Below, one piece after another: positions 10,004 to 33,403 of a stretch of 38,673 bases of DNA. This stretch comes from Bacilli bacterium. Its GTDB lineage: Bacteria; Bacillota; Bacilli; Paenibacillales; DASWUO01. The position numbers and the translations under genes are program-made. The DNA lies in the NCBI GenBank assembly GCA_036401615.1, contig DASWUO010000059.1, positions 1 through 38,673 of the forward strand, written 5' to 3'. The notes below the pieces were generated by a model. It was given only the letters and a program-made list of their open reading frames with translations. It did not search any database and was not told where the DNA came from. How positions within the stretch are numbered: the stretch's first letter is position 1; every line of letters begins with the position of its first letter.

Positions 10004-11044
10004 TCAACTAATTTCAAGATGCTGGGTTTGCACCGCCTCTAACCATTGTTCATATTTCTTCAAAGCCATTCCCTGCTCCAACGCATATTTGGCATGATAT
10101 ATCCCTTCTTCAACGGAGTCTACTTTTTCCGCAATCCATAGACGAAGGGCGCTGTTCAACAGCACCATATTGTGGTAATACATCTCGCTTTCACCTCTAA
10201 GCACCTTAAGCGCCGTTTGCGCCTGAAGAGCCGCTGTCCATTCCACCTCGGGCATTTCCGCTTGCAGTTCGAAAATTTCCGGATCTACGATGTAGAGTTC
10301 ACTTGCACCATCCCGTACAATGTAGGTTCTGGTTCTTTTATCAAGCGCCAGATCCTCAGACCCTTCTACCCCTTGTAAAATAATACCCCGCTTAATCCCG
10401 AGCTGTATGATGAGTTTAGACATCTTTTCGAACACGGTTCCATGAAATACGCCAACTGCCATATAAGGCGCTTCCGATAACCGCAGCAGCTTCTCAACGG
10501 TGTTAAACACGGTTCTGACCCCCAACTCCTGTCGAATTCCCCGAAGACCGCCTAATGGCGGACACCAATGTTCGGTTGATATGAATAATACACCGCCTTT
10601 TTCAGCTCCGGCAAGATGTGCATTTCTGGAATCGGCACCTGTGGAAACTCCAATTTCGTGTAACAAATCCGTTAAAGTAATCCCCATTTTTGGAGGAAGC
10701 GGAGCACTGCCATGCAGCGTTACAGGTAAACCGCAGGATGCCAGGACAAAAGCAGTCGGAAAAGTAGCGATGAATGAACGCTTGCGCCCGTCATAAGGGC
10801 CGGCACAATCAAATCCACCCTTTATAGGATGTACAGTACTTGTATTGCGGCAAACGTCAACAAAAGCTTGAATTTCTTCCGTAGATTCCATCTTGATTCT
10901 CTCAGCAATCAGGAACGCCCCGATCTGCGCCGGAGTAGCTTTGCCTGTGATAATCATCCCAGCTCCCATAACTGCTTCTTCATAAGTCAGGTCACGGGCG
11001 CCCTTCTTACCCCTTCCAACTTCCTTTAATAAGGAAAACATCAT
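10004..11044 (-). CDS. TrpD2 (YbiB-like) protein: AnPRT fold without the catalytic motifs
   Basis: 346 aa. The N-terminus LKEVGRGKKGARDLTYEEA resembles E. coli YbiB. The AnPRT motifs GTGGD and KHGNR are replaced by AGPYDG and LHGS. The ATG overlaps the upstream ANTAR stop (ATGA). Confidence 0.75.
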   Translation of the reverse strand: MMFSLLKEVGRGKKGARDLTYEEAVMGAGMIITGKATPAQIGAFLIAERIKMESTEEIQAFVDVCRNTSTVHPIKGGFDCAGPYDGRKRSFIATFPTAFVLASCGLPVTLHGSAPLPPKMGITLTDLLHEIGVSTGADSRNAHLAGAEKGGVLFISTEHWCPPLGGLRGIRQELGVRTVFNTVEKLLRLSEAPYMAVGVFHGTVFEKMSKLIIQLGIKRGIILQGVEGSEDLALDKRTRTYIVRDGASELYIVDPEIFELQAEMPEVEWTAALQAQTALKVLRGESEMYYHNMVLLNSALRLWIAEKVDSVEEGIYHAKYALEQGMALKKYEQWLEAVQTQHLEIS

Positions 11045-11661
11045 TTCTTTCGTCCCCCTCTTGTTTCTTCTTGAAGAAGTTGAAATACTTTCACAATCGA
11101 GGATGCTACATCGGACATTCTTTTTCTTTCATTCATAGCTTGTTTGCGCAAAAACTCATAGGCTTCCGCCTCAGAAATCTTCTTCATATCACATAGTATT
11201 TTCTTGGCTTGATCGATCCACTTGCGTTCTTCCAGTTTGGACAACAGCAGCTCTCTTTCCAGCTGCCACTGTGTGCGTTCCATATAGTGCTTGGAGCTTA
11301 GATGCAGCACCCAATTGATTTCTGCATCGTTCATTCCCATGCATAACATACCGTCCAAATCCAACTCAAGACTGCATTCACTGCTGCCTGAAGTAGATTC
11401 ATCAAACCACCACAGAAGAGGCAGGTTGCGCCAAGCCAGTATTTTTGTTCCCCACTTGATTAAATCAGGAATGGCCATTTGAAGAATAACGGCATCTATT
11501 GCCCGAAGGTTTTGTTTAACTTCTATTTCCGTATGCGCGTATATCACGCGGTAACCCATAAGCGCCAGTTTATGGGCAGGGCTTTTATGATCGGCTATGT
11601 TATTGTTTACAGGATCTTTTATAATTAAAAAAGATTGCAGCAATACTAACACTCCTTTCAT
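11041..11661 (-). CDS. ANTAR-domain RNA-binding antiterminator with pseudo-receiver N-terminal domain (AmiR/NasT-like)
   Basis: The C-terminus WIDQAKKILCDMKKISEAEAYEFLRKQAMNERKRMSDVASSIV is ANTAR. In the receiver-like half, Gln sits at the phospho-acceptor position (VILQMAIP). AAAGGAG lies just inside the track ORF, so TTG 11643 may be the true start. Confidence 0.85.
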   Translation of the reverse strand: MKGVLVLLQSFLIIKDPVNNNIADHKSPAHKLALMGYRVIYAHTEIEVKQNLRAIDAVILQMAIPDLIKWGTKILAWRNLPLLWWFDESTSGSSECSLELDLDGMLCMGMNDAEINWVLHLSSKHYMERTQWQLERELLLSKLEERKWIDQAKKILCDMKKISEAEAYEFLRKQAMNERKRMSDVASSIVKVFQLLQEETRGGRKK

Positions 11662-11856: not shown

Positions 11857-12600
11857 CTAGGTGATCCAGCTTTGCTCCTCCGCAAGCTGTTTGCGATACA
11901 CAATCCGAGACAATATGACACTCAACTCAAACAGCAGTATGAGCGGGATCGTCACCAGTAAGTCGGAGATGATGTCCGGAGGTGTCACCATCGTAGCGAT
12001 GACGATAAGCAGCATGTAGGCATAACGCCGCATTTTTTGCAGCCGCATCGGGTTTAACACACGAATCCGTGTCAGAAACATGACCAAGACCGGCAGCTCA
12101 AACAAGAGTGACAGAGGTATTATAATATTGAACATAAACGAAAAATACTGGGTGATCCCATACGTTTCTGTCAATCCCAGCCCATGCGTCACAGCCAAGG
12201 TGAACTGGAACGCCATCGGGAAAACAACCCGATACCCAAAGGCCAATCCGCCAAAAAATAACAGAATCGCCCAAGGGATGTATTTGAGTGCCGCTTTGCG
12301 CTCCGGCATGCGCAAGCCTGGCTTGACGAATGACCACATCTGAATAAGCGCAATGGGCATCGCTGCTGACAACGCGATAACGAACGCGATCTGCATATAC
12401 ACGCGAATGGCATCCCAAGGTGAAAATACATTCCATGAGACGTCCTTTGCCAGAGCCGCTTCCTTCAGAAACTCAAGAATCCGCTCAGCCGCAAACAATC
12501 CGCCAATCATTGCCGCCACCAAAACCACCAAAACCCAAACGATGCGGCTTCGCAGCTCGCTTAGATGATCGACAAGGGACATCTCCCGGTCTTCCCGCAT
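11857..12600 (-). CDS. tatC: Sec-independent translocase subunit TatC
   Basis: Polytopic TatC pattern with an MREDREMSLVDHLSELRSR N-terminus. I set the start to ATG 12600, just after the tatA stop; the track start 12681 would overlap tatA. Confidence 0.85.
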   Translation of the reverse strand: MREDREMSLVDHLSELRSRIVWVLVVLVAAMIGGLFAAERILEFLKEAALAKDVSWNVFSPWDAIRVYMQIAFVIALSAAMPIALIQMWSFVKPGLRMPERKAALKYIPWAILLFFGGLAFGYRVVFPMAFQFTLAVTHGLGLTETYGITQYFSFMFNIIIPLSLLFELPVLVMFLTRIRVLNPMRLQKMRRYAYMLLIVIATMVTPPDIISDLLVTIPLILLFELSVILSRIVYRKQLAEEQSWIT

Positions 12601-12625
12601 GATTTCACCAGCCTGCCCACTTTCG

Positions 12626-12868
12626 TTATTCCGGCAATCGCTTGTTATCCTTAAATTGGCCGTTTTCAACATATTGAGCATCAGATCCGCCTACTTCTTT
12701 ACGTGAAGCTTGCTGATCATCATCCGACAGCGCTTCACGCGTGCCTTTCTTAAATTCACTAAGCGTACGGCCGATCGCCCGGCCGAGCTCCGGCAGCTTG
12801 CTCGGTCCGAACAAGATAATCCCAACGAGCGCTATCAAAATCAAACCTGTGGCGCCAATACCACCCAT
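12626..12868 (-). CDS. tatA: Sec-independent translocase subunit TatA
   Basis: One TM plus an amphipathic helix, with the motif GIILFGPSKLPELGRAIG. ATG 12868 lies 8 nt after AAGGAG; the track GTG at 12877 sits inside the SD. Confidence 0.85.
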   Translation of the reverse strand: MGGIGATGLILIALVGIILFGPSKLPELGRAIGRTLSEFKKGTREALSDDDQQASRKEVGGSDAQYVENGQFKDNKRLPE

Positions 12869-12986
12869 ACGAAACACTCCTTAGGGGATGCACAAAAGGG
12901 TGCTCCCGCATTATTTTTATTTTCTGTAAAGCGGATTTCCGCCTTACAGAGCGCAATTCAGCTTCAAATGGTGTTGTAAAAGCATT

Positions 12987-13823
12987 TCACCTCATTTCAA
13001 CGGTCGGTCTGCCGTGAAGATATTCCAGCAATTCATCTTTCAGGTCGTTATAAACCGACTGGTGGATCACCTCGCGCCGCATACGGGGACGTTTGATCGG
13101 GACGGTGATGATCGTCTCTACTTTTGCCGCCGGACCGTTGGTCATCACCACGATACGATCAGATAAAAGAATCGCTTCGTCAATATCGTGGGTCACCATG
13201 ATGACAGTATCCGTACCACCCACCGGACCGCCATCGCCGTTTCCGTCTGCCGTGGGCTTCCACAGGCTGACAAGCTCATCTTGAAGTGTGGCTCGCGTGA
13301 GTGCATCTAGGGCGCCGAAGGGTTCATCGAGAAGGAGCACCTGGGGGCCAACCGCGAAAGCACGTGCAATGGCTGCGCGCTGCTTCATACCGCCTGAGAT
13401 TTCATCCGGCCGCTTATGTCTGTGCTTCCACAATCCGACCACGCTAAGATAATGCTCGACGATAGACTTCTTTTCGGCTTGTGAACGATTCGGGAAAACG
13501 GCGTCCACGACCTCATAGACATTTCCCCATACCGAGAGCCACGGCAAGAGAGAGTAATTCTGAAAGACAACGCCCCGGTCGGGGCCGGGACCGGTAACAG
13601 GCTCCCCGTCGAGGAACACTTTACCGGTCGTTGGCTTCTCCAGTCCGGCAACGATATTGAGAATCGTCGATTTGCCGCACCCGGAGTGTCCGATCAAGGA
13701 GACAAACTCGCCTCTTTCGATGTGCAAGTTAATATTTTGGAGGACTTGGAAATCGCCCTTCTTGGTTGGATACACCTTGCTGATGTTCTCAAGTTTCAGG
13801 TAGGACAATCCGTCACCCCCCAT
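12987..13823 (-). CDS. ABC transporter ATP-binding protein, nitrate/sulfonate/bicarbonate (NrtD/SsuB) type
   Basis: Walker A GHSGCGKST, signature SGGMKQR, Walker B LLLDEPF. It overlaps the permease gene end. Confidence 0.85.
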   Translation of the reverse strand: MGGDGLSYLKLENISKVYPTKKGDFQVLQNINLHIERGEFVSLIGHSGCGKSTILNIVAGLEKPTTGKVFLDGEPVTGPGPDRGVVFQNYSLLPWLSVWGNVYEVVDAVFPNRSQAEKKSIVEHYLSVVGLWKHRHKRPDEISGGMKQRAAIARAFAVGPQVLLLDEPFGALDALTRATLQDELVSLWKPTADGNGDGGPVGGTDTVIMVTHDIDEAILLSDRIVVMTNGPAAKVETIITVPIKRPRMRREVIHQSVYNDLKDELLEYLHGRPTVEMR

Positions 13824-14667
13824 AATGGAATCTTTTTTCGATATAATGAAAGCCCCTGTCCAAAACGAGACCGACTAAGCCGATGAGCACGATAGCAGAG
13901 ATGACCCGTTCCAAGCTGAGTGCGTTCCAGCTATCCCAGACGAAGAATCCGATACCGGTTCCGCCTGAAAGCATTTCTGCGGCAACGATCACCATCCAGG
14001 CGATTCCAAGGCTCAGCCGCAGGCCTGTAAGAATATAGGGCAACGAGTAGGGGAAAAGCACCTTCGTCAGATACTTCCATTTCGAAAAGCGGAAGACCGC
14101 AGCCACATTTCGGTGGTCCTTAGGAATCGACGAGACACCAAAGGCTGTGTTCACGACTGTCGGCCAGAGCGACGTAATGAAGATAATAAAGATCGTGGCC
14201 GGGCCGACCAAATGAAATACTGCCAGCCCAATAGGAAACCAGGCTAACGGGGACACTGGCCTCAGCACTTGGACAATCGGGTCGAAGAGCTGCCTGCAGA
14301 ACGGTGTCACACCCATGGCAATCCCAAGCGGCACCGCGATCAGCGCGCCCAATAGAAATCCGGCGAACACCCGCCCTAGCGAGGCTAATAGCTGCAGCCC
14401 AATTCCTTTATCGTTAGGGCCGTAGTTATAAAACGGGTTGGAGACAAGATCCCAGAAAATAGGCAGCGTACTCACGGGACCAGGAAGGGCTTTACCCGAG
14501 AGTTGGCTCGTTACTTCCCACAACAGGACGAGGAGCGTCATGCTCCCGATCAGGTAACCGGCCTTGCGCAGGCCGTTCATCAGGCCGTTCATCCAGTGGG
14601 AAGGCAGAGTGAGGCGTCTCACTGATAATACACTATGCGTGACACTCTGTTCTATTTGCTTACTCAT
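13813..14667 (-). CDS. ABC transporter permease, NrtB/SsuC type
   Basis: 284 aa polytopic binding-protein-dependent inner-membrane component, sitting between the SBP and ATPase genes. Confidence 0.85.
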   Translation of the reverse strand: MSKQIEQSVTHSVLSVRRLTLPSHWMNGLMNGLRKAGYLIGSMTLLVLLWEVTSQLSGKALPGPVSTLPIFWDLVSNPFYNYGPNDKGIGLQLLASLGRVFAGFLLGALIAVPLGIAMGVTPFCRQLFDPIVQVLRPVSPLAWFPIGLAVFHLVGPATIFIIFITSLWPTVVNTAFGVSSIPKDHRNVAAVFRFSKWKYLTKVLFPYSLPYILTGLRLSLGIAWMVIVAAEMLSGGTGIGFFVWDSWNALSLERVISAIVLIGLVGLVLDRGFHYIEKRFHYGG

Positions 14668-14672
14668 CTAGA

Positions 14673-15950
14673 TCAACCTCCGTATTGTTTTAACGATCCA
14701 GCCGGATCGCTCGGGTCAAACGTAGCGCCGTCCAGTTTGAGCTGGAAGGACTTCATGTCGTCATCGGGAATGGAGATCCCCATTTCGCCCGCGACCTCAC
14801 GGTACAGGTCCTTCATAATCAGCTTGTCGGCAATCTGCTCGTACTCCGGGTGTTTATCCAGATATCCGAAGCGGACGTACTGGCTCATAAAGAACATGGC
14901 ATGGGATTTGCGCGGTAAGTTCACGCTTCCGCCCTTGTGAAAGAGCATATAATCGTCAGTGTAGATGTGTTCGCCCAGATCGGCGCCCAAATCATATTTA
15001 CCCAGCAGGCGGTTCTCGATCGTTTCGGCCGGGGCGTTGACGTAGGCCTGGTGGCCGATCACCTTGGCGGCCTCTTTGCGGTTATCTAATTTATCGAGCC
15101 ACTGCGACGCTTCGAGGACGGCCTTCATGACGGCCTTCACCTCGTCGGTGCGGGCGCTCCAAACCTTGTTGAGGACAAGAGCCTTCTCGGTGTGGTCCTT
15201 CCAGATGTCCTGTGTGGAAATGTGGGTAAATCCTATTTTCTGCGCTACAGCTACTCCGCCCCAGGGCTCACCCACACAGTATCCGTCCATGTTGCCCACC
15301 TTCATATTGGCTACCATTTGTGGCGGCGGGATCGTGATGATCTTCAGCTTCTTCTGATCGACTCCGACCGCCCCCAACCAGTAGCGCAGCCACAGGTCGT
15401 GCGTTCCCCCGGGGAAGGTCATGGCAAAAGTCGTCTCGCGCTTTGCCATCATCTCTTCAATGGCGGTTTTGGCCGCCTTCAGGTCTCGAAAGCCGGCATT
15501 GCGGAACTCGTTGGAAAGAGTAATTGCCTGCCCGTTCGTATTGAGCACCATGGCGATCGGTAACTCACTGCCAGCCATGCCGCCAACCCCAGTGTAGACG
15601 GAGAACGGCATGCCGAAGAGGCAGTGAGAAGCATTCAGGTCGCCGGAGAGCAATTTGTCGCGTACCGCGGCCCACGAAGCTTCCTTGGTGACGTCCACGT
15701 CCACGCCGTACTTCTCAAAGAGGCCGAGTTCTTTGGCCATGACGACCGAAGCGCAGTCCGTCAACGGAATAAAGCCAATCTTGATCTTCCCTCCCTTCTT
15801 CGGGGTCGGGATCGGGCTGTTTGAGGCAACCGGAGTCTTCTCAGTATTCTTGACTCCGCATGCGGAAAGCAGGGCGCCGGGCAGCATCAATGCGGCACCC
15901 GCCACACCCGTCTTTTTCAAGAACTCTCGTCTTGTTATTTTATCTCTCAT
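14673..15950 (-). CDS. Tat-exported lipoprotein substrate-binding protein, NrtA/CmpA-like (nitrate/nitrite inferred from context)
   Basis: Twin-arginine motif TRREFLKK followed by lipobox LLSAC. The mature domain is of the NrtA/SsuA family type. GGGGAGGA lies 6 nt upstream of the ATG. Confidence 0.82.
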   Translation of the reverse strand: MRDKITRREFLKKTGVAGAALMLPGALLSACGVKNTEKTPVASNSPIPTPKKGGKIKIGFIPLTDCASVVMAKELGLFEKYGVDVDVTKEASWAAVRDKLLSGDLNASHCLFGMPFSVYTGVGGMAGSELPIAMVLNTNGQAITLSNEFRNAGFRDLKAAKTAIEEMMAKRETTFAMTFPGGTHDLWLRYWLGAVGVDQKKLKIITIPPPQMVANMKVGNMDGYCVGEPWGGVAVAQKIGFTHISTQDIWKDHTEKALVLNKVWSARTDEVKAVMKAVLEASQWLDKLDNRKEAAKVIGHQAYVNAPAETIENRLLGKYDLGADLGEHIYTDDYMLFHKGGSVNLPRKSHAMFFMSQYVRFGYLDKHPEYEQIADKLIMKDLYREVAGEMGISIPDDDMKSFQLKLDGATFDPSDPAGSLKQYGG

Positions 15951-16054
15951 AGGATTTCCTCCCCTATCATCGCAGCCGCAAGAGGAGCCATGATCGTCAA
16001 CTGCAATACTTTGATTTCTTCATTTATGAACTTAGAAAAATCAGCCACCTTCAT
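15947..16054 (-). CDS. Candidate 35-codon upstream small ORF coupled to the SBP gene
   Basis: AGGAGGGG, then 5 nt, then ATG 16054. Translation MKVADFSKFINEEIKVLQLTIMAPLAAAMIGEEIL. Its TGA overlaps the SBP ATG (ATGA at 15947-15950). Below the ORF-track size cutoff. Confidence 0.3.
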   Translation of the reverse strand: MKVADFSKFINEEIKVLQLTIMAPLAAAMIGEEIL

Positions 16055-16234
16055 ACTTACCCCTCCTGTAAATTATTTAGCCTCTCGGCATTCGTTGAGC
16101 CAATACGGGACGAAGAATTCCTTGTACTGCTAAAATCATGTTGCGCAATTTCACAACTTCCGCTGCATTTTAATGTAAGCGCGCTTTCTGTATCCCCTCC
16201 TTATCCCGAGTGTAACTAGGCATTTTCATGTTAA

Positions 16235-16286
16235 TAAAGATAACACAAAAGGCCTATCCCTCTACATCGCTGTAGGGAGGATAGGC
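16235..16286 (-). terminator. Leader intrinsic terminator of the nrt-tat operon
   Basis: Minus-strand RNA GCCUAUCCUCCCUACA-gcga-UGUAGAGGGAUAGGC (about 15 bp with one bulge) followed by CUUUUGUGUUAUCUUUAUU. It lies about 285 nt upstream of the SBP start. Confidence 0.7.
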
Positions 16287-16325
16287 TTCATTGCCCTTAA
16301 GGAGTGACACATCATTGTGCTCCTT
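16283..16325 (-). promoter_or_regulatory. ANTAR-type dual hexaloop element (nrt leader)
   Basis: P1 is AAGGAGCAC[AAUGAU]GUG(uca)CUCCUU. P2 is GGGC[AAUGAA]GCCU. Both loops have A at position 1 and G at position 4. The P2 3' arm is the first 4 nt of the terminator 5' arm. Confidence 0.7.
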
Positions 16326-16337
16326 GTTGATATTGTT

Positions 16338-16366
16338 ATTATAAATGGCATTTTCGCATATGTCAA
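16338..16366 (-). promoter_or_regulatory. Sigma-A promoter of the nrt-tat operon
   Basis: On the minus strand: TTGACA (16366-16361), a 17-nt spacer, then TATAAT (16343-16338). Both hexamers match consensus. Confidence 0.7.
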
Positions 16367-16377
16367 TAAACATAACA
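16361..16377 (-). promoter_or_regulatory. TnrA/GlnR-type box overlapping the -35 of the nrt promoter
   Basis: The minus strand reads TGTTATGTTTATTGACA, which equals TGTNA-N7-TNACA exactly. Confidence 0.5.
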
Positions 16378-16433
16378 TTAAAATTTAAAATTCATTAATT
16401 ATGCGACCTTACTCGTCTTTTTTTCTCTTTATA

Positions 16434-16450
16434 TGTCATGTTTTCTTACA
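16434..16450. promoter_or_regulatory. TnrA/GlnR-type box
   Basis: TGTCATGTTTTCTTACA matches TGTNA-N7-TNACA. It sits inside the longer palindrome TATATGTCA...TTACATATA. Confidence 0.5.
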
Positions 16451-16541
16451 TATAAAGACTTCTGATCACCATTGGCGATAAAAAGTTACGCATCTTCTTC
16501 AGTTTTTGTATTTTACTCCAATGTCATCGATCAAAAGATTG

Positions 16542-16558
16542 TGTCAATATTAATAACA
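16542..16558. promoter_or_regulatory. TnrA/GlnR-type box
   Basis: TGTCAATATTAATAACA matches TGTNA-N7-TNACA. Confidence 0.5.
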
Positions 16559-16583: not shown

Positions 16584-16600
16584 CGTTATGTTTATTGACA
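16584..16600 (+). promoter_or_regulatory. TnrA/GlnR-type box (one mismatch) overlapping the -35 of the nas promoter
   Basis: CGTTATGTTTATTGACA. 16 of its 17 nt are identical to the box at 16361-16377 read on the other strand. Confidence 0.45.
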
Positions 16601-16624
16601 TGACATAGTGAATCGTCTTATAAT
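16595..16624 (+). promoter_or_regulatory. Sigma-A promoter of the nasA-nasD-nasE-nasC operon
   Basis: TTGACA (16595-16600), an 18-nt spacer, then TATAAT (16619-16624). Confidence 0.7.
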
Positions 16625-16666
16625 CAAGTTATCACAATAAAGGTGACTGCATATTGATTAATGAAT

Positions 16667-16703
16667 TTAAACACAACGTTGTGTTTAATTGGCAATGAGG
16701 CCA
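16667..16703 (+). promoter_or_regulatory. ANTAR-type dual hexaloop element (nas leader)
   Basis: P1 is UUAAACAC[AACGUU]GUGUUUAA (8 bp). P2 is UGGC[AAUGAG]GCCA. Both loops are A1/G4. The P2 3' arm GCCA lies within the terminator 5' arm AGGCCAU. Confidence 0.7.
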
Positions 16704-16754
16704 TTTCGGGATCCATAAGGATCTTCAGATGGCCTTTTTATGTGTTTTATTTTT
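16698..16754 (+). terminator. Leader intrinsic terminator of the nas operon
   Basis: AGGCCAUUUCGGGAUCC-auaa-GGAUCUUCAGAUGGCCU pairs 17 positions with one C-C mismatch and three G-U wobbles. It is followed by UUUUAUGUGUUUUAUUUUU. Confidence 0.75.
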
Positions 16755-23048: not shown

Positions 23049-23143
23049 GGATCCTCTGACTCAAATTTATCTATATTAATTGATTAATTTCCGATATAAT
23101 AAATGGATACTGCATATCATTATATATGGGGAGGAAGTTAACA

Positions 23144-23704
23144 ATGGAGGGTATAGAGGATAGAAAAATATTTGTTTTTACCGGCCCGGATGGATCCGGC
23201 CGCAAAACCGTTGCCCATCACGCAGGAACTTCACACCAATTAAAAAGAGTTTTATCCTATACTACCCGACCAAGCAGGTCTTATGAGACAGACGGCATAG
23301 ATTACCATTTTATCACCCGGGAGCAATTTATCGAGGCTGACCAGAATGGGGAATTTATCGAAACCCTGGAGATTGAAGGGGTTTACTACGGAATCAAATC
23401 CAAAGAAATTGAAGATATGTTTCAGAAGCATCCTTACGTATACCTTATCTTAAACCGCCAGGGTTCGGATCTGGTGAAGGCGGTTTTTGGGGATCAAGTA
23501 GTACGTATCTTGATTTACGCCGATCGCAATAAGGTCATGAGCCGATTGTTGGAGCGGGGAGATACGACGGAGATTATTTATAAAAACATGGCTCGTTATG
23601 AAGAGGAAATGGCTTATTTGAAACAATGCGATTACAATGTTGAAAATTATGAGTTAGAAGAAACCGTTGAAGAAGTTACTGAGATTTTAAAAAAATATAT
23701 TTAA
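23144..23704 (+). CDS. Guanylate-kinase-family paralogue with atypical P-loop
   Basis: SYTTRPSRSYETDGIDYHFITREQF matches the GMP-binding block of Gmk. The P-loop reads GPDGSGRKT rather than GPSGxGK(G/S)T. Start set to ATG 23144, 6 nt after GGGGAGGAAG; the track start is 23126. Confidence 0.68.
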   Translation: MEGIEDRKIFVFTGPDGSGRKTVAHHAGTSHQLKRVLSYTTRPSRSYETDGIDYHFITREQFIEADQNGEFIETLEIEGVYYGIKSKEIEDMFQKHPYVYLILNRQGSDLVKAVFGDQVVRILIYADRNKVMSRLLERGDTTEIIYKNMARYEEEMAYLKQCDYNVENYELEETVEEVTEILKKYI

Positions 23705-31489: not shown

Positions 31490-33403
31490 ATGTTCAATAA
31501 AACAAACATCTACCGTCATCTTTCTTATGCCAGTTATACCCTCTTTTTAATTTTATATTTATGGAAAATCTATCTTTTTAACCAATACACGAATGTTATT
31601 TTTATTAACACCCCCTGGTACCAGGGAACGTATGTAATCAGCTTGGGCTGCTTGATATTACTTTCCTTCTGGGTGTTTCTTCTTTCGGGAACGTTCCGGT
31701 TTCTCTCCTTAATCGGCATTAATTTGGCCGTTAGCTTTGTGATCTTTGCGGATTTATTATATTTCCGTTATTTCAAGGATTTTATCACCATTCCTGTAAT
31801 TTTACAGTCCGGACAAGTCAGTTCACTTGGGGACAGTGTTACTAACTTAATTGAAAACACGGATATATACTTTGTGGCAGATTTTGTTTTCTGGCTTCCA
31901 ATAGGAATTTTTTTATTAATCAGGTTAGGAATGAACAAACTATCTTCCTCTAATGTTCCTTCAAGAGCCAGCAGATTAAGAACAACCGCAGTGGTCTTCT
32001 GTATCGGTCTTCTTCTCACCGCCTACCCGCTGCACGTAGCTTCAACCACTTGGGCCAAGGAATTACTGCAAAGAAATTGGTGGAACATGTCAGTTTACAA
32101 TGCTACAGGGCTATTGGGTTTTCACGGTTATGATGCTTATAAATATACGGGAGAGCATTTGGTAAATAAGAATATTTCCGATGAGGATGCCGAAGAAGCT
32201 AAGATGTGGTTTGAGGAACATAGGGCAAAGCAGGTAAAGGACTTGACCTTGTTTGGGGCCGCCCAAGGGAGCAATGTCATTGTTGTACAGGCAGAGGCCT
32301 TCCAGAACTTTGCCATCGGCCGGAAGATCAATGGCGAAGAAATTACCCCTAATTTAAATGTTTTACTTAAGGAATCGATGTATTTTAATCACTTTTATCA
32401 CCAGACAGGACAAGGCCGAACCTCGGATGCCGATTTTCTAACCCATTGCTCATTGCACCCGCTGCCTACCGGTTCTGTTTTTATACGTTATCCGGATAAC
32501 ACCTATGATTGTCTCCCGCAAACCTTGAAGGACAATGGTTATCAAACCGCTGCTTTTCATGCTTATGAACCAAGCTTCTGGAATCGTTATCATGTCTATC
32601 CCAACATCGGAATAGACCGTTTCTACAGTGTCAAAGATTACAGTATTAATGAAATTATCGGTTGGTCGCTAAGCGATGAATCTTTCTTTAAACAATCCAT
32701 TGATAAAATGAACACTTTGCAGACGCCCTATTATTCTTACCTGATTACCTTGTCCAGTCATCATCCTTATAGTATTCAAGAGTATTATAAAAAATTAAAC
32801 GTGGGCAGCCTTAAAGACAAAATGCTCGGAAACTATATCCAATCTCTTCATTATGTTGACAAAGCTTTAGGAAATTTAGTAGAAAGATTAAAGGCTGACG
32901 GTCTCTGGGATACTTCCATTTTCGTATTTTACGGGGATCATGACAATGCGATTGTGGATTATAAGGGCATGGACTATTTTTACGGCAAAGAACAATCTTC
33001 ACTGGAGCGGGAGCAAGCCCGTAATCAAGTGCCGCTAATCATTCACCTGCCCCATGGTCAGGGTGCCGGCTTGTACGAGCAAGCAGCGGGGCAAATGGAT
33101 CTATCTCCTGCAATTATGCATTTATTAGGGATTCCGGCAAAAGACAAATACATCATGGGCAGCAATTTATTGCAAAATGACGGGCACAACGTGGTACTTC
33201 GTAACGGCAGCTTTACAGACAGCACGGTGTATTATATCGCTTCCCTAGACCATGTATTTGAACACGGGGAGTGTTACGACTTGAGCGATCAACAGAAAAC
33301 GAACCTGAATGCTTGCAGAAACCAATTTAATAGCGCTAACAAAGAGTTGGAGATTTCGGATCGGGTGATCCTATATAATTTAATCAAAGAGTGGAAGCCC
33401 TAA
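31490..33403 (+). CDS. ltaS: LTA synthase family protein (polyglycerolphosphate transferase, sulfatase fold)
   Basis: Five N-terminal TM helices plus an extracellular sulfatase-like domain with GQGRTSDADF (LtaS catalytic Thr block). Start set to ATG 31490 behind GGAAGGA; the track start is 31475. Confidence 0.85.
   Translation: MFNKTNIYRHLSYASYTLFLILYLWKIYLFNQYTNVIFINTPWYQGTYVISLGCLILLSFWVFLLSGTFRFLSLIGINLAVSFVIFADLLYFRYFKDFITIPVILQSGQVSSLGDSVTNLIENTDIYFVADFVFWLPIGIFLLIRLGMNKLSSSNVPSRASRLRTTAVVFCIGLLLTAYPLHVASTTWAKELLQRNWWNMSVYNATGLLGFHGYDAYKYTGEHLVNKNISDEDAEEAKMWFEEHRAKQVKDLTLFGAAQGSNVIVVQAEAFQNFAIGRKINGEEITPNLNVLLKESMYFNHFYHQTGQGRTSDADFLTHCSLHPLPTGSVFIRYPDNTYDCLPQTLKDNGYQTAAFHAYEPSFWNRYHVYPNIGIDRFYSVKDYSINEIIGWSLSDESFFKQSIDKMNTLQTPYYSYLITLSSHHPYSIQEYYKKLNVGSLKDKMLGNYIQSLHYVDKALGNLVERLKADGLWDTSIFVFYGDHDNAIVDYKGMDYFYGKEQSSLEREQARNQVPLIIHLPHGQGAGLYEQAAGQMDLSPAIMHLLGIPAKDKYIMGSNLLQNDGHNVVLRNGSFTDSTVYYIASLDHVFEHGECYDLSDQQKTNLNACRNQFNSANKELEISDRVILYNLIKEWKP

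Follow-up and report, generated by a model that had tools for sequence, protein, structure and literature searches.

The nrt-tat leader element and its mirrored counterpart

The window analysed here, the complete 38,673-bp contig of a metagenome-assembled genome ('Bacilli bacterium') whose nearest relatives are Paenibacillus and alkaliphilic Bacillaceae, holds two divergent operons. The minus-strand operon, nrtA-nrtB-nrtC/D-tatA-tatC, encodes an ATP-binding cassette (ABC) transporter for nitrate together with twin-arginine (Tat) proteins, and the plus-strand operon encodes a NarK-type transporter, nirB, nirD and nasC. Our subject is an RNA element in the 5' leader of the former, the nrt-tat operon, that has the form of a target for an ANTAR antitermination protein. 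According to the ANTAR paradigm, such a target consists of two hairpins with hexaloops carrying A at position 1 and G at position 4 (A1/G4), of which the second is mutually exclusive with an intrinsic terminator and is kept folded by an ANTAR dimer (Ramesh et al. 2012, PMC3369931; Walshe et al. 2022, PMC8934654). A first-pass annotation had placed an element of this kind in the nrt-tat leader, and it is indeed found between a sigma-A promoter and the five genes of the operon, with the following parts (hairpin loops in square brackets):

16338..16366, minus strand: sigma-A promoter of the nrt-tat operon (TTGACA, 17 nt, TATAAT; 12/12 consensus)
16299..16325, minus strand: P1 hairpin AAGGAGCAC[AAUGAU]GUG(uca)CUCCUU; -8.2 kcal/mol alone and present in every predicted fold
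16283..16296, minus strand: P2 hairpin GGGC[AAUGAA]GCCU; weak, -4.4 kcal/mol, with a G-U outer pair
16252..16286, minus strand: intrinsic terminator hairpin GCCUAUCCUCCCUACA-gcga-UGUAGAGGGAUAGGC; -19.4 kcal/mol
16233..16251, minus strand: U-rich tail CUUUUGUGUUAUCUUUAUU, with 13 U in 19 nt

The P1 and P2 sequences given in the first-pass annotation are correct base for base on the minus strand, as is the sequence of the terminator and U-rich tail that directly follow P2 (16286-16233). The position of the promoter predicts a transcription start at ~16331, 6 nt before P1, and the linker between P1 and P2 is 2 nt long. Both loops, AAUGAU and AAUGAA, have A1 and G4, and the GCCU at 16286-16283 is common to the 3' arm of P2 and the first four bases of the terminator 5' arm, just as had been claimed. 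The leader thus has every feature of an ANTAR target that can be tested on sequence: a pair of hexaloop hairpins, each loop with A1 and G4, a P2 and a terminator that exclude one another, and a U tract.

The 106-nt leader folds with an energy of -32.9 kcal/mol, corresponding to z = -3.25 relative to 200 shuffles, and in both the minimum free energy and the centroid folds P1 and the terminator are formed and P2 is open. The state with P1 and P2 has an energy of -14.4 kcal/mol versus -29.4 kcal/mol for the state with P1 and the terminator, an indication that termination is the default and that P2 requires outside help to form.

The leader of the divergent narK-nirBD-nasC operon has a mirrored element on the opposite strand:

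16595..16624, plus strand: sigma-A promoter of the narK-nirBD-nasC operon (TTGACA, 18 nt, TATAAT; 12/12 consensus)
16667..16753, plus strand: mirrored ANTAR element, with P1 at 16667-16688 (loop AACGUU), P2 at 16690-16703 (loop AAUGAG) and the terminator at 16697-16736, followed by a U tract

The AAYGNN pattern that the earlier annotation had reported holds for all four loops of the region: AACGUU and AAUGAG (plus strand), AAUGAU and AAUGAA (minus strand). The P1 of the narK leader, TTAAACACAACGTTGTGTTTAA (16667-16688), is a perfect 22-nt palindrome, loop included, and could double as a DNA operator.

Specificity and conservation of the element

A loose motif, for which any two A..G.. hexaloops with stems of 3 bp or more suffice, lacks specificity, giving 20 matches in the window versus 10.5 +/- 3.4 in dinucleotide shuffles. 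A strict motif, in which both loops are AAYGNN, stems have at least 4 bp and the linker is no longer than 12 nt, gave three matches in the window versus 0.023 expected, and none were found in 300 shuffles. Two of these matches are the nrt-leader element and its mirrored counterpart (16667-16703, plus strand). The third lies on the sense strand of a pyruvate carboxylase gene (9133-9089, minus strand); neither of the covariance models described below supports it and it is probably a chance match.

We built a covariance model, R2, from seven leaders of other genomes and no window sequence, its seeds being Bacillales relatives rather than the original eut/nas/ami seed set, and searched both strands of the window with filters off. 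The top match is the nrt element (16326-16281, minus strand; 38.4 bits, E ~1e-7), followed by the narK-leader element (16665-16705, plus strand; 26.7 bits, E ~8e-5). These are the only two significant matches in the 38.7-kb window, and the third best scores 8.4 bits. Being palindromic, the narK-leader P1 forms an identical hairpin on either strand, which accounts for a spurious 16.7-bit minus-strand model match at that site.

A sister model, R1, was searched over 704 kb from 50 loci. Its seven matches of at least 36 bits are all its own seed leaders, which precede nitrate/nitrite-assimilation genes. Four weak matches (17.6-20.8 bits, E 0.095-0.47) are at other places in Bacillales loci, including one within an mreB-like gene, and there is no match in the 41 loci of other phyla. 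R1 is narrow, having been trained on AAUG loops: it gives low scores to the clear elements of L084 (AACGAA) and L087 (AAAGUC), and it recovered no NasT/NasR-type leaders in the proteobacterial loci. Rfam returned nothing at gathering thresholds for the element and only noise up to E 10.

Bacillales were absent among the matches listed for a profile search with an NrtA alignment, which came from Bacteroidota, Proteobacteria and other phyla; the comparison loci, numbered L081 to L095 below, were fetched via exact-protein look-ups. In these loci nrtA, narK and nirB leaders from Paenibacillus, Cohnella, Halalkalibacter and Aquibacillus show the P1/P2/terminator design again, and the design seen in the window is kept, with compensatory stem changes, in homologous leaders of seven other genomes or metagenome contigs. 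The leaders compared are:

L081: nrtA leader of an 86% NrtA relative; P1 loop AAUGAG, P2 loop AAUGGA
L094: nrtA leader of a close NrtA relative; P1 loop AAUUAG, P2 loop AAUGGG
L086: nrtA leader; P1 loop AAUGAA, P2 loop AAUGAA
L083: nrtA leader of P. alkaliterrae; two units in tandem
L084: nrtA leader of Halalkalibacter flavus; P1 loop AACGAA, P2 loop AACGAA
L087: nrtA leader of a high-GC relative; P1 loop AAAGUC, P2 loop AAAGUC, 25-nt linker
L089: narK leader of P. validus; two tandem units
L091: leader of a major facilitator superfamily (MFS) transporter gene of Aquibacillus albus; one unit
L092: nirB leader of a Cohnella; one unit

Each of the six nrtA leaders has P1, P2 and a terminator that starts inside P2, and the narK leader of L081 is also of this design. 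In L095 a weak match precedes an MFS-tatA-nrtA operon; we discarded it for want of a terminator.

To count covariation we anchored the hairpin segments on their loops and left them ungapped; L084 and L087 were omitted from the covariance models, MAFFT having misaligned their P1. In the P1 stems 90% of cells are paired, falling to 30-48% in a control with a slid partner, and there are 31 double-sided changes versus 10 +/- 2.6 in shuffles. In the P2 stems the three inner pairs, GGC/GCC, are invariant and the outer pair covaries, taking six standard forms. The counts for both stems are biased upward because the elements were picked partly for their hairpins. The leave-window-out model and the fixed position of the element in the leader are free of this selection bias.

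Several of the related leaders have tandem ANTAR/terminator units (L089 9592-9796, minus strand; L081 12220-12410, minus strand; L083 5651-5890; L086 5645-5890). In the P. validus narK leader it is unit A, and in the L083 and L086 nrtA leaders the second unit, that is homologous to the nrt terminator of the window (GCCUAUCC...), and this homology suggests that units have been shuffled between leaders. At 9953-10070 of L083, after tatC and ahead of a gene for a methyl-accepting chemotaxis protein, there is an ANTAR-like P2 (GGGC[AAUGGG]GCCU) with an overlapping terminator and a poor P1. The regulon of P. alkaliterrae may include this site too.

The ANTAR/TrpD-like gene pair, promoter boxes and operon genes

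One ANTAR gene is present on the contig, and its stop overlaps the start of a second gene:

11041..11661, minus strand: ANTAR regulator gene (receiver fold, long helix, ANTAR domain)
10004..11044, minus strand: TrpD-like (glycosyl transferase family 3) gene

The ANTAR gene lies 196 nt beyond tatC, across an AT-rich gap with a hairpin at its tatC side, and forms its own transcription unit. Neither inspection of its leader nor the two covariance models revealed an ANTAR element upstream of it. The 206-aa open reading frame (ORF) has an ANTAR domain (PF03861, E = 3.2e-17) at residues 141-190; homologues align from residue 6 onward, which makes the TTG near 11643 the probable start. A Pfam search of the protein gave no domain besides ANTAR, hence no NIT domain. 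In an AF2 model (pLDDT 87.8) the protein is of receiver-ANTAR fold, with a five-stranded receiver, a 49-residue helix and the three-helix ANTAR bundle, and the top Foldseek matches of this model are EutV (6WW6/6WSH), AmiR (1QO0, the second-best fold) and Rv1626 (1S8N). The closest solved structure by sequence is EutV 6WSH (E = 2e-10), and NasR (4AKK) aligns over the ANTAR domain only. Databases label the family 'response regulator NasT'.

We take the aspartate of the LMDIQMP stretch of EutV to be the phospho-acceptor; the window protein has a hydrophobic I/L at the aligned position. The acceptor column, as inferred from the family's DAVxLx motif, reads Q, S, S, S, C, Q, R, D, C and D in ten members. 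The Q, S, C and R residues at this column indicate that most members of the family are not phosphorylatable, and on these alignments the window regulator is an AmiR-like pseudo-receiver. No kinase gene is adjacent to the ANTAR gene.

The TrpD-like gene overlaps the ANTAR gene by 4 nt, and an overlapping TrpD-like gene comes next in every locus reached via the ANTAR protein (the window, L084, L089/90, L091 and L092/93). In all of these loci, which represent Halalkalibacter, P. validus, Aquibacillus and Cohnella besides the window, the pair adjoins nitrate/nitrite genes. Moreover, at least 25 members could be paired between the ANTAR and TrpD-like match lists by equally sized contigs, some of only 2.0 kb. 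The TrpD-like family is conserved (54-68% identity) and is annotated as anthranilate phosphoribosyltransferase across Paenibacillus, Cohnella, Brevibacillus and alkaliphilic Bacillaceae. We reject that identity for the window protein: it matches the fold family only (PF00591, PF02885) and reaches 146 bits against TIGR01245, below the cut-off of 199, and the family is without the GTGGD loop that binds phosphoribosyl pyrophosphate and without KHGN, having invariant DCAGPYDGR and LHGS...LPPK instead.

Building on the analogy with AmiC-AmiR and NasS-NasT, in which the sensor has an unrelated fold, we suggest the TrpD-like protein as the sensing partner of the regulator. The two would form a new ANTAR system, in which a translationally coupled, catalytically dead TrpD-like protein senses nitrate/nitrite, or another nitrogen signal, and sets the activity of a phosphorylation-incompetent receiver-ANTAR protein. 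We put this forward tentatively, as a proposal with almost as much to be said for it as against it. The literature that we searched contained nothing linking ANTAR with a TrpD-like protein.

The promoters of the two operons have boxes resembling the sites of the nitrogen regulator GlnR:

16360..16377, minus strand: GlnR/TnrA-type box (A)TGTTATGTTTATTGACAT, overlapping the -35 hexamer of the nrt promoter
16585-16601: GlnR-type box at the narK promoter, overlapping its -35 hexamer
~16228-16245: third copy of the GlnR-type box, in the distal part of the U-rich tail of the nrt terminator
16434-16450 and 16542-16558: GlnR-type boxes

The consensus TGTNAN7TNACA has six exact sites in the window versus 0.44 expected, and four of them fall within 16229-16558. 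The 17-mer GTTATNTTTATTRACAT overlaps the -35 hexamers of both divergent promoters, and a further copy lies on the distal U tract of the nrt terminator. GlnR sites at the divergent nasA/nasD1 promoters of Paenibacillus polymyxa have been validated by chromatin immunoprecipitation and electrophoretic mobility shift assay (GTGTTATGTATATTGACAT; PMC9948412), and the window boxes closely resemble them. It is very likely, judging from these boxes, that putative GlnR-type sites at both promoters provide a second layer of control, one absent from the first-pass annotation. A GlnR-like box at 31595 lies within a sulfatase-family gene and is probably a chance match.

The stretch after the nrt terminator (16190-16255, minus strand) aligns with the nrt promoter (16325-16395, minus strand), and contains the box GTTATCTTTATTAACAT, GAAAATGCC and a TACACT after a 14-nt spacer. 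On this alignment the stretch resembles a duplicated promoter in decay, or it may be a roadblock site for GlnR.

The remaining features of the nrt-tat operon are:

15947..16054, minus strand: small ORF of 35 codons with the Shine-Dalgarno sequence AGGAGGGG; its stop overlaps the nrtA start (ATGA)
14673..15950, minus strand: nrtA, an NrtA/CmpA-family substrate-binding protein with a twin-arginine signal
13813..14667, minus strand: nitrate ABC transporter permease, nrtB (TIGR01183, above the NCBIfam cut-off)
12987..13823, minus strand: nitrate ABC transporter ATPase, nrtC/D (TIGR01184, above the NCBIfam cut-off)
12626..12877, minus strand: tatA-like small protein (position, and TatA_B_E genes at the equivalent place in related loci)
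11857..12681, minus strand: tatC, with a terminator-like hairpin after the gene at ~11843-11790

The name tatA for 12626..12877 is a call made from position and from the related loci. The Shine-Dalgarno sequence of the small ORF is strong and its TGA overlaps the nrtA ATG. L094 has a peptide akin to that of this ORF (KVA..KFINEEIK.LQLT), with synonymous third-position differences and no canonical start, and L083, L084 and L086 have upstream ORFs that are unrelated to it and likewise end at the nrtA start. The ribosome-binding sites are distant from the leader element, ~180 nt for the small ORF and ~280 nt for nrtA, which argues against a translational mode of action.

The last gene of the nrt-tat operon in close relatives encodes a cyanase (L094 10084-10527) or a chlorite-dismutase-like protein (L081 10222-10788), an indication that the substrate of the NrtA/CmpA-family transporter could be nitrate, nitrite or cyanate. 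On the other side of the divergent region, a guanylate-kinase-family gene (23126-23704, plus strand) directly follows nasC on the same strand, an unusual final member for a nitrate-assimilation operon.

Mechanism, alternatives and comparison with known systems

The element is very probably an ANTAR-dependent transcription attenuator in the 5' leader of nrtA-nrtB-nrtC-tatA-tatC. The structures and their mutual exclusivity, the position, the conservation and covariation and the presence and fold of a regulator are observed, and from them we infer binding by an ANTAR protein and termination in vivo. Transcription would start ~6 nt before P1, with the GlnR-type box over the promoter giving control by nitrogen status. 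By default, P1 would form, the weak P2 would cede its 3' arm to the terminator and polymerase would stop at ~16250-16235. An active dimer of the ANTAR protein (11661-11041) would bind AAUGAU and AAUGAA through A1 and G4 and hold P2 closed, the terminator could then not nucleate, and polymerase would read through into the transporter and Tat genes. The same protein is proposed to act at the narK-nirBD-nasC leader, such that the genes for uptake and reduction would be induced together. The signal is probably nitrate or nitrite, and the co-encoded TrpD-like protein may control the activity of the phosphorylation-incompetent regulator in the way that AmiC controls AmiR and NasS controls NasT.

The first-pass annotation had both operons wired to one RNA-binding regulator. 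The elements in both leaders and the single ANTAR gene on the contig support this, and that one protein would bind both leaders. Its description of a compact regulon of uptake and reduction genes is fair, with the addition of the GlnR-type layer.

Several observations weigh against an ANTAR-dependent attenuator. The U tract is broken after four U by a G, and a simple terminator scanner missed the hairpin on account of two irregularities in its stem. RNAfold can pair A1 with U6 in the first loop, which leaves a tetraloop. Some 180 nt and the small ORF separate the terminator from nrtA, where further control is possible. One related nrtA leader, that of L085, has no such element at all, the covariation counts have the upward bias given above, and other ANTAR genes may lie off the contig. 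The last point leads to a different reading, in which the attenuator is genuine and its regulator is another ANTAR protein encoded off the contig, or in which the two leaders are under different regulators or signals. Only 38.7 kb of the genome is in view, four of the loci with an nrtA-leader element (L081, L083, L086 and L087) have no ANTAR gene within 6 kb, and the two window leaders have slightly different P1 loops (AACGUU versus AAUGAU). We nevertheless consider this unlikely, given that the ANTAR/TrpD-like pair is found beside nitrate/nitrite-assimilation genes in every locus fetched through the pair and that both window leaders fit one model made from leaders beside such pairs.

That the hairpins resemble an ANTAR target by chance, and that the terminator is constitutive or otherwise regulated, is very improbable. 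The abundance of the loose motif, the evidently fortuitous strict-motif match in the pyruvate carboxylase gene and the absence of any matching Rfam family would fit such a reading, but the low expectation for the strict motif, the E-value of ~1e-7 from the leave-window-out model, the conservation and covariation of the design across genera, the exact placement between promoter and operon and the mirrored twin all argue against it. It is more improbable still that the element is a decaying relic of a leader or promoter duplication with no regulatory role, leaving GlnR at the promoter as the sole control. The post-terminator stretch does align with the promoter and retains a GlnR-type box, and the tandem units of relatives include some with non-canonical loops (the second unit of L086, the L091 P2 with AAUAGA and the L094 P1 with AAUUAG). 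The window element, in contrast, is fully canonical, with A1/G4 loops, intact stems and a strong terminator, and has the best model score.

As an ANTAR-dependent attenuator, the RNA element is not new in kind, ANTAR antitermination at Paenibacillus nitrate genes having already been predicted (Ramesh et al. 2012, PMC3369931). It adds another well-supported case of ANTAR antitermination in Firmicutes nitrate assimilation, one in which a single divergent promoter region would place an ABC nitrate importer, the Tat export machinery for its binding protein and a reductase operon under one RNA-binding regulator, in addition to GlnR-type control at the promoters. The case is of use for annotation and for reconstructing the regulon, and leaves the understanding of the mechanism unchanged. 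The regulator module is the more consequential lead. Should the TrpD-like protein prove to be the sensor, a paralogue widely mis-annotated as 'anthranilate phosphoribosyltransferase' would turn out to be a signalling protein, and pseudo-receiver ANTAR proteins would have a third, structurally unrelated way to sense a signal.

The closest precedent for the RNA is found in Table S2 of Ramesh et al. 2012 (PLoS Genet), which lists divergent ANTAR RNA matches at a nitrate/nitrite transporter and a nitrite reductase of P. polymyxa (PMC3369931). These share with the window the clade, the genes and the criterion of dual hexaloops with an overlapping terminator. They differ in being a computational list only, without discussion of a regulator, a partner gene or GlnR boxes, and the second target in the window is nrtABC-tatAC, not nitrite reductase. 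For EutV and NasR both the mechanism and the A1/G4 rule have been established (PMC3369931; PMC8934654). Klebsiella oxytoca nasF/NasR resembles the window in combining nitrogen control at initiation with pathway-specific antitermination via two A1/G4 hexaloops. NasR, however, is a one-protein NIT-ANTAR sensor acting behind a sigma-54/NtrC promoter, whereas the window has a sigma-A promoter with GlnR-type boxes and a regulator with a receiver fold and no NIT domain.

EutV, which acts on the eut leaders of Enterococcus faecalis, is closest to the window regulator by both sequence and fold and has the defining dual-hexaloop/terminator mechanism, but it is phosphorylated by the kinase EutW, and the window family lacks a conserved phospho-acceptor Asp. 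In the NasS-NasT systems of Paracoccus denitrificans and Pseudomonas, nas genes are controlled by receiver-ANTAR antitermination, and a co-transcribed partner is described in that work as keeping NasT inactive until nitrate or nitrite is present (PMC3795266). NasS is an NrtA-like binding protein, whereas the partner gene in the window encodes a TrpD-like member of glycosyl transferase family 3 whose interaction with the regulator is only proposed. AmiC-AmiR of Pseudomonas aeruginosa differs from the window in its pathway, the amidase operon, and in its periplasmic-binding-protein-like partner. Like the window regulator, AmiR is a pseudo-receiver ANTAR protein, and it is sterically sequestered by the ligand-binding AmiC (1QO0).

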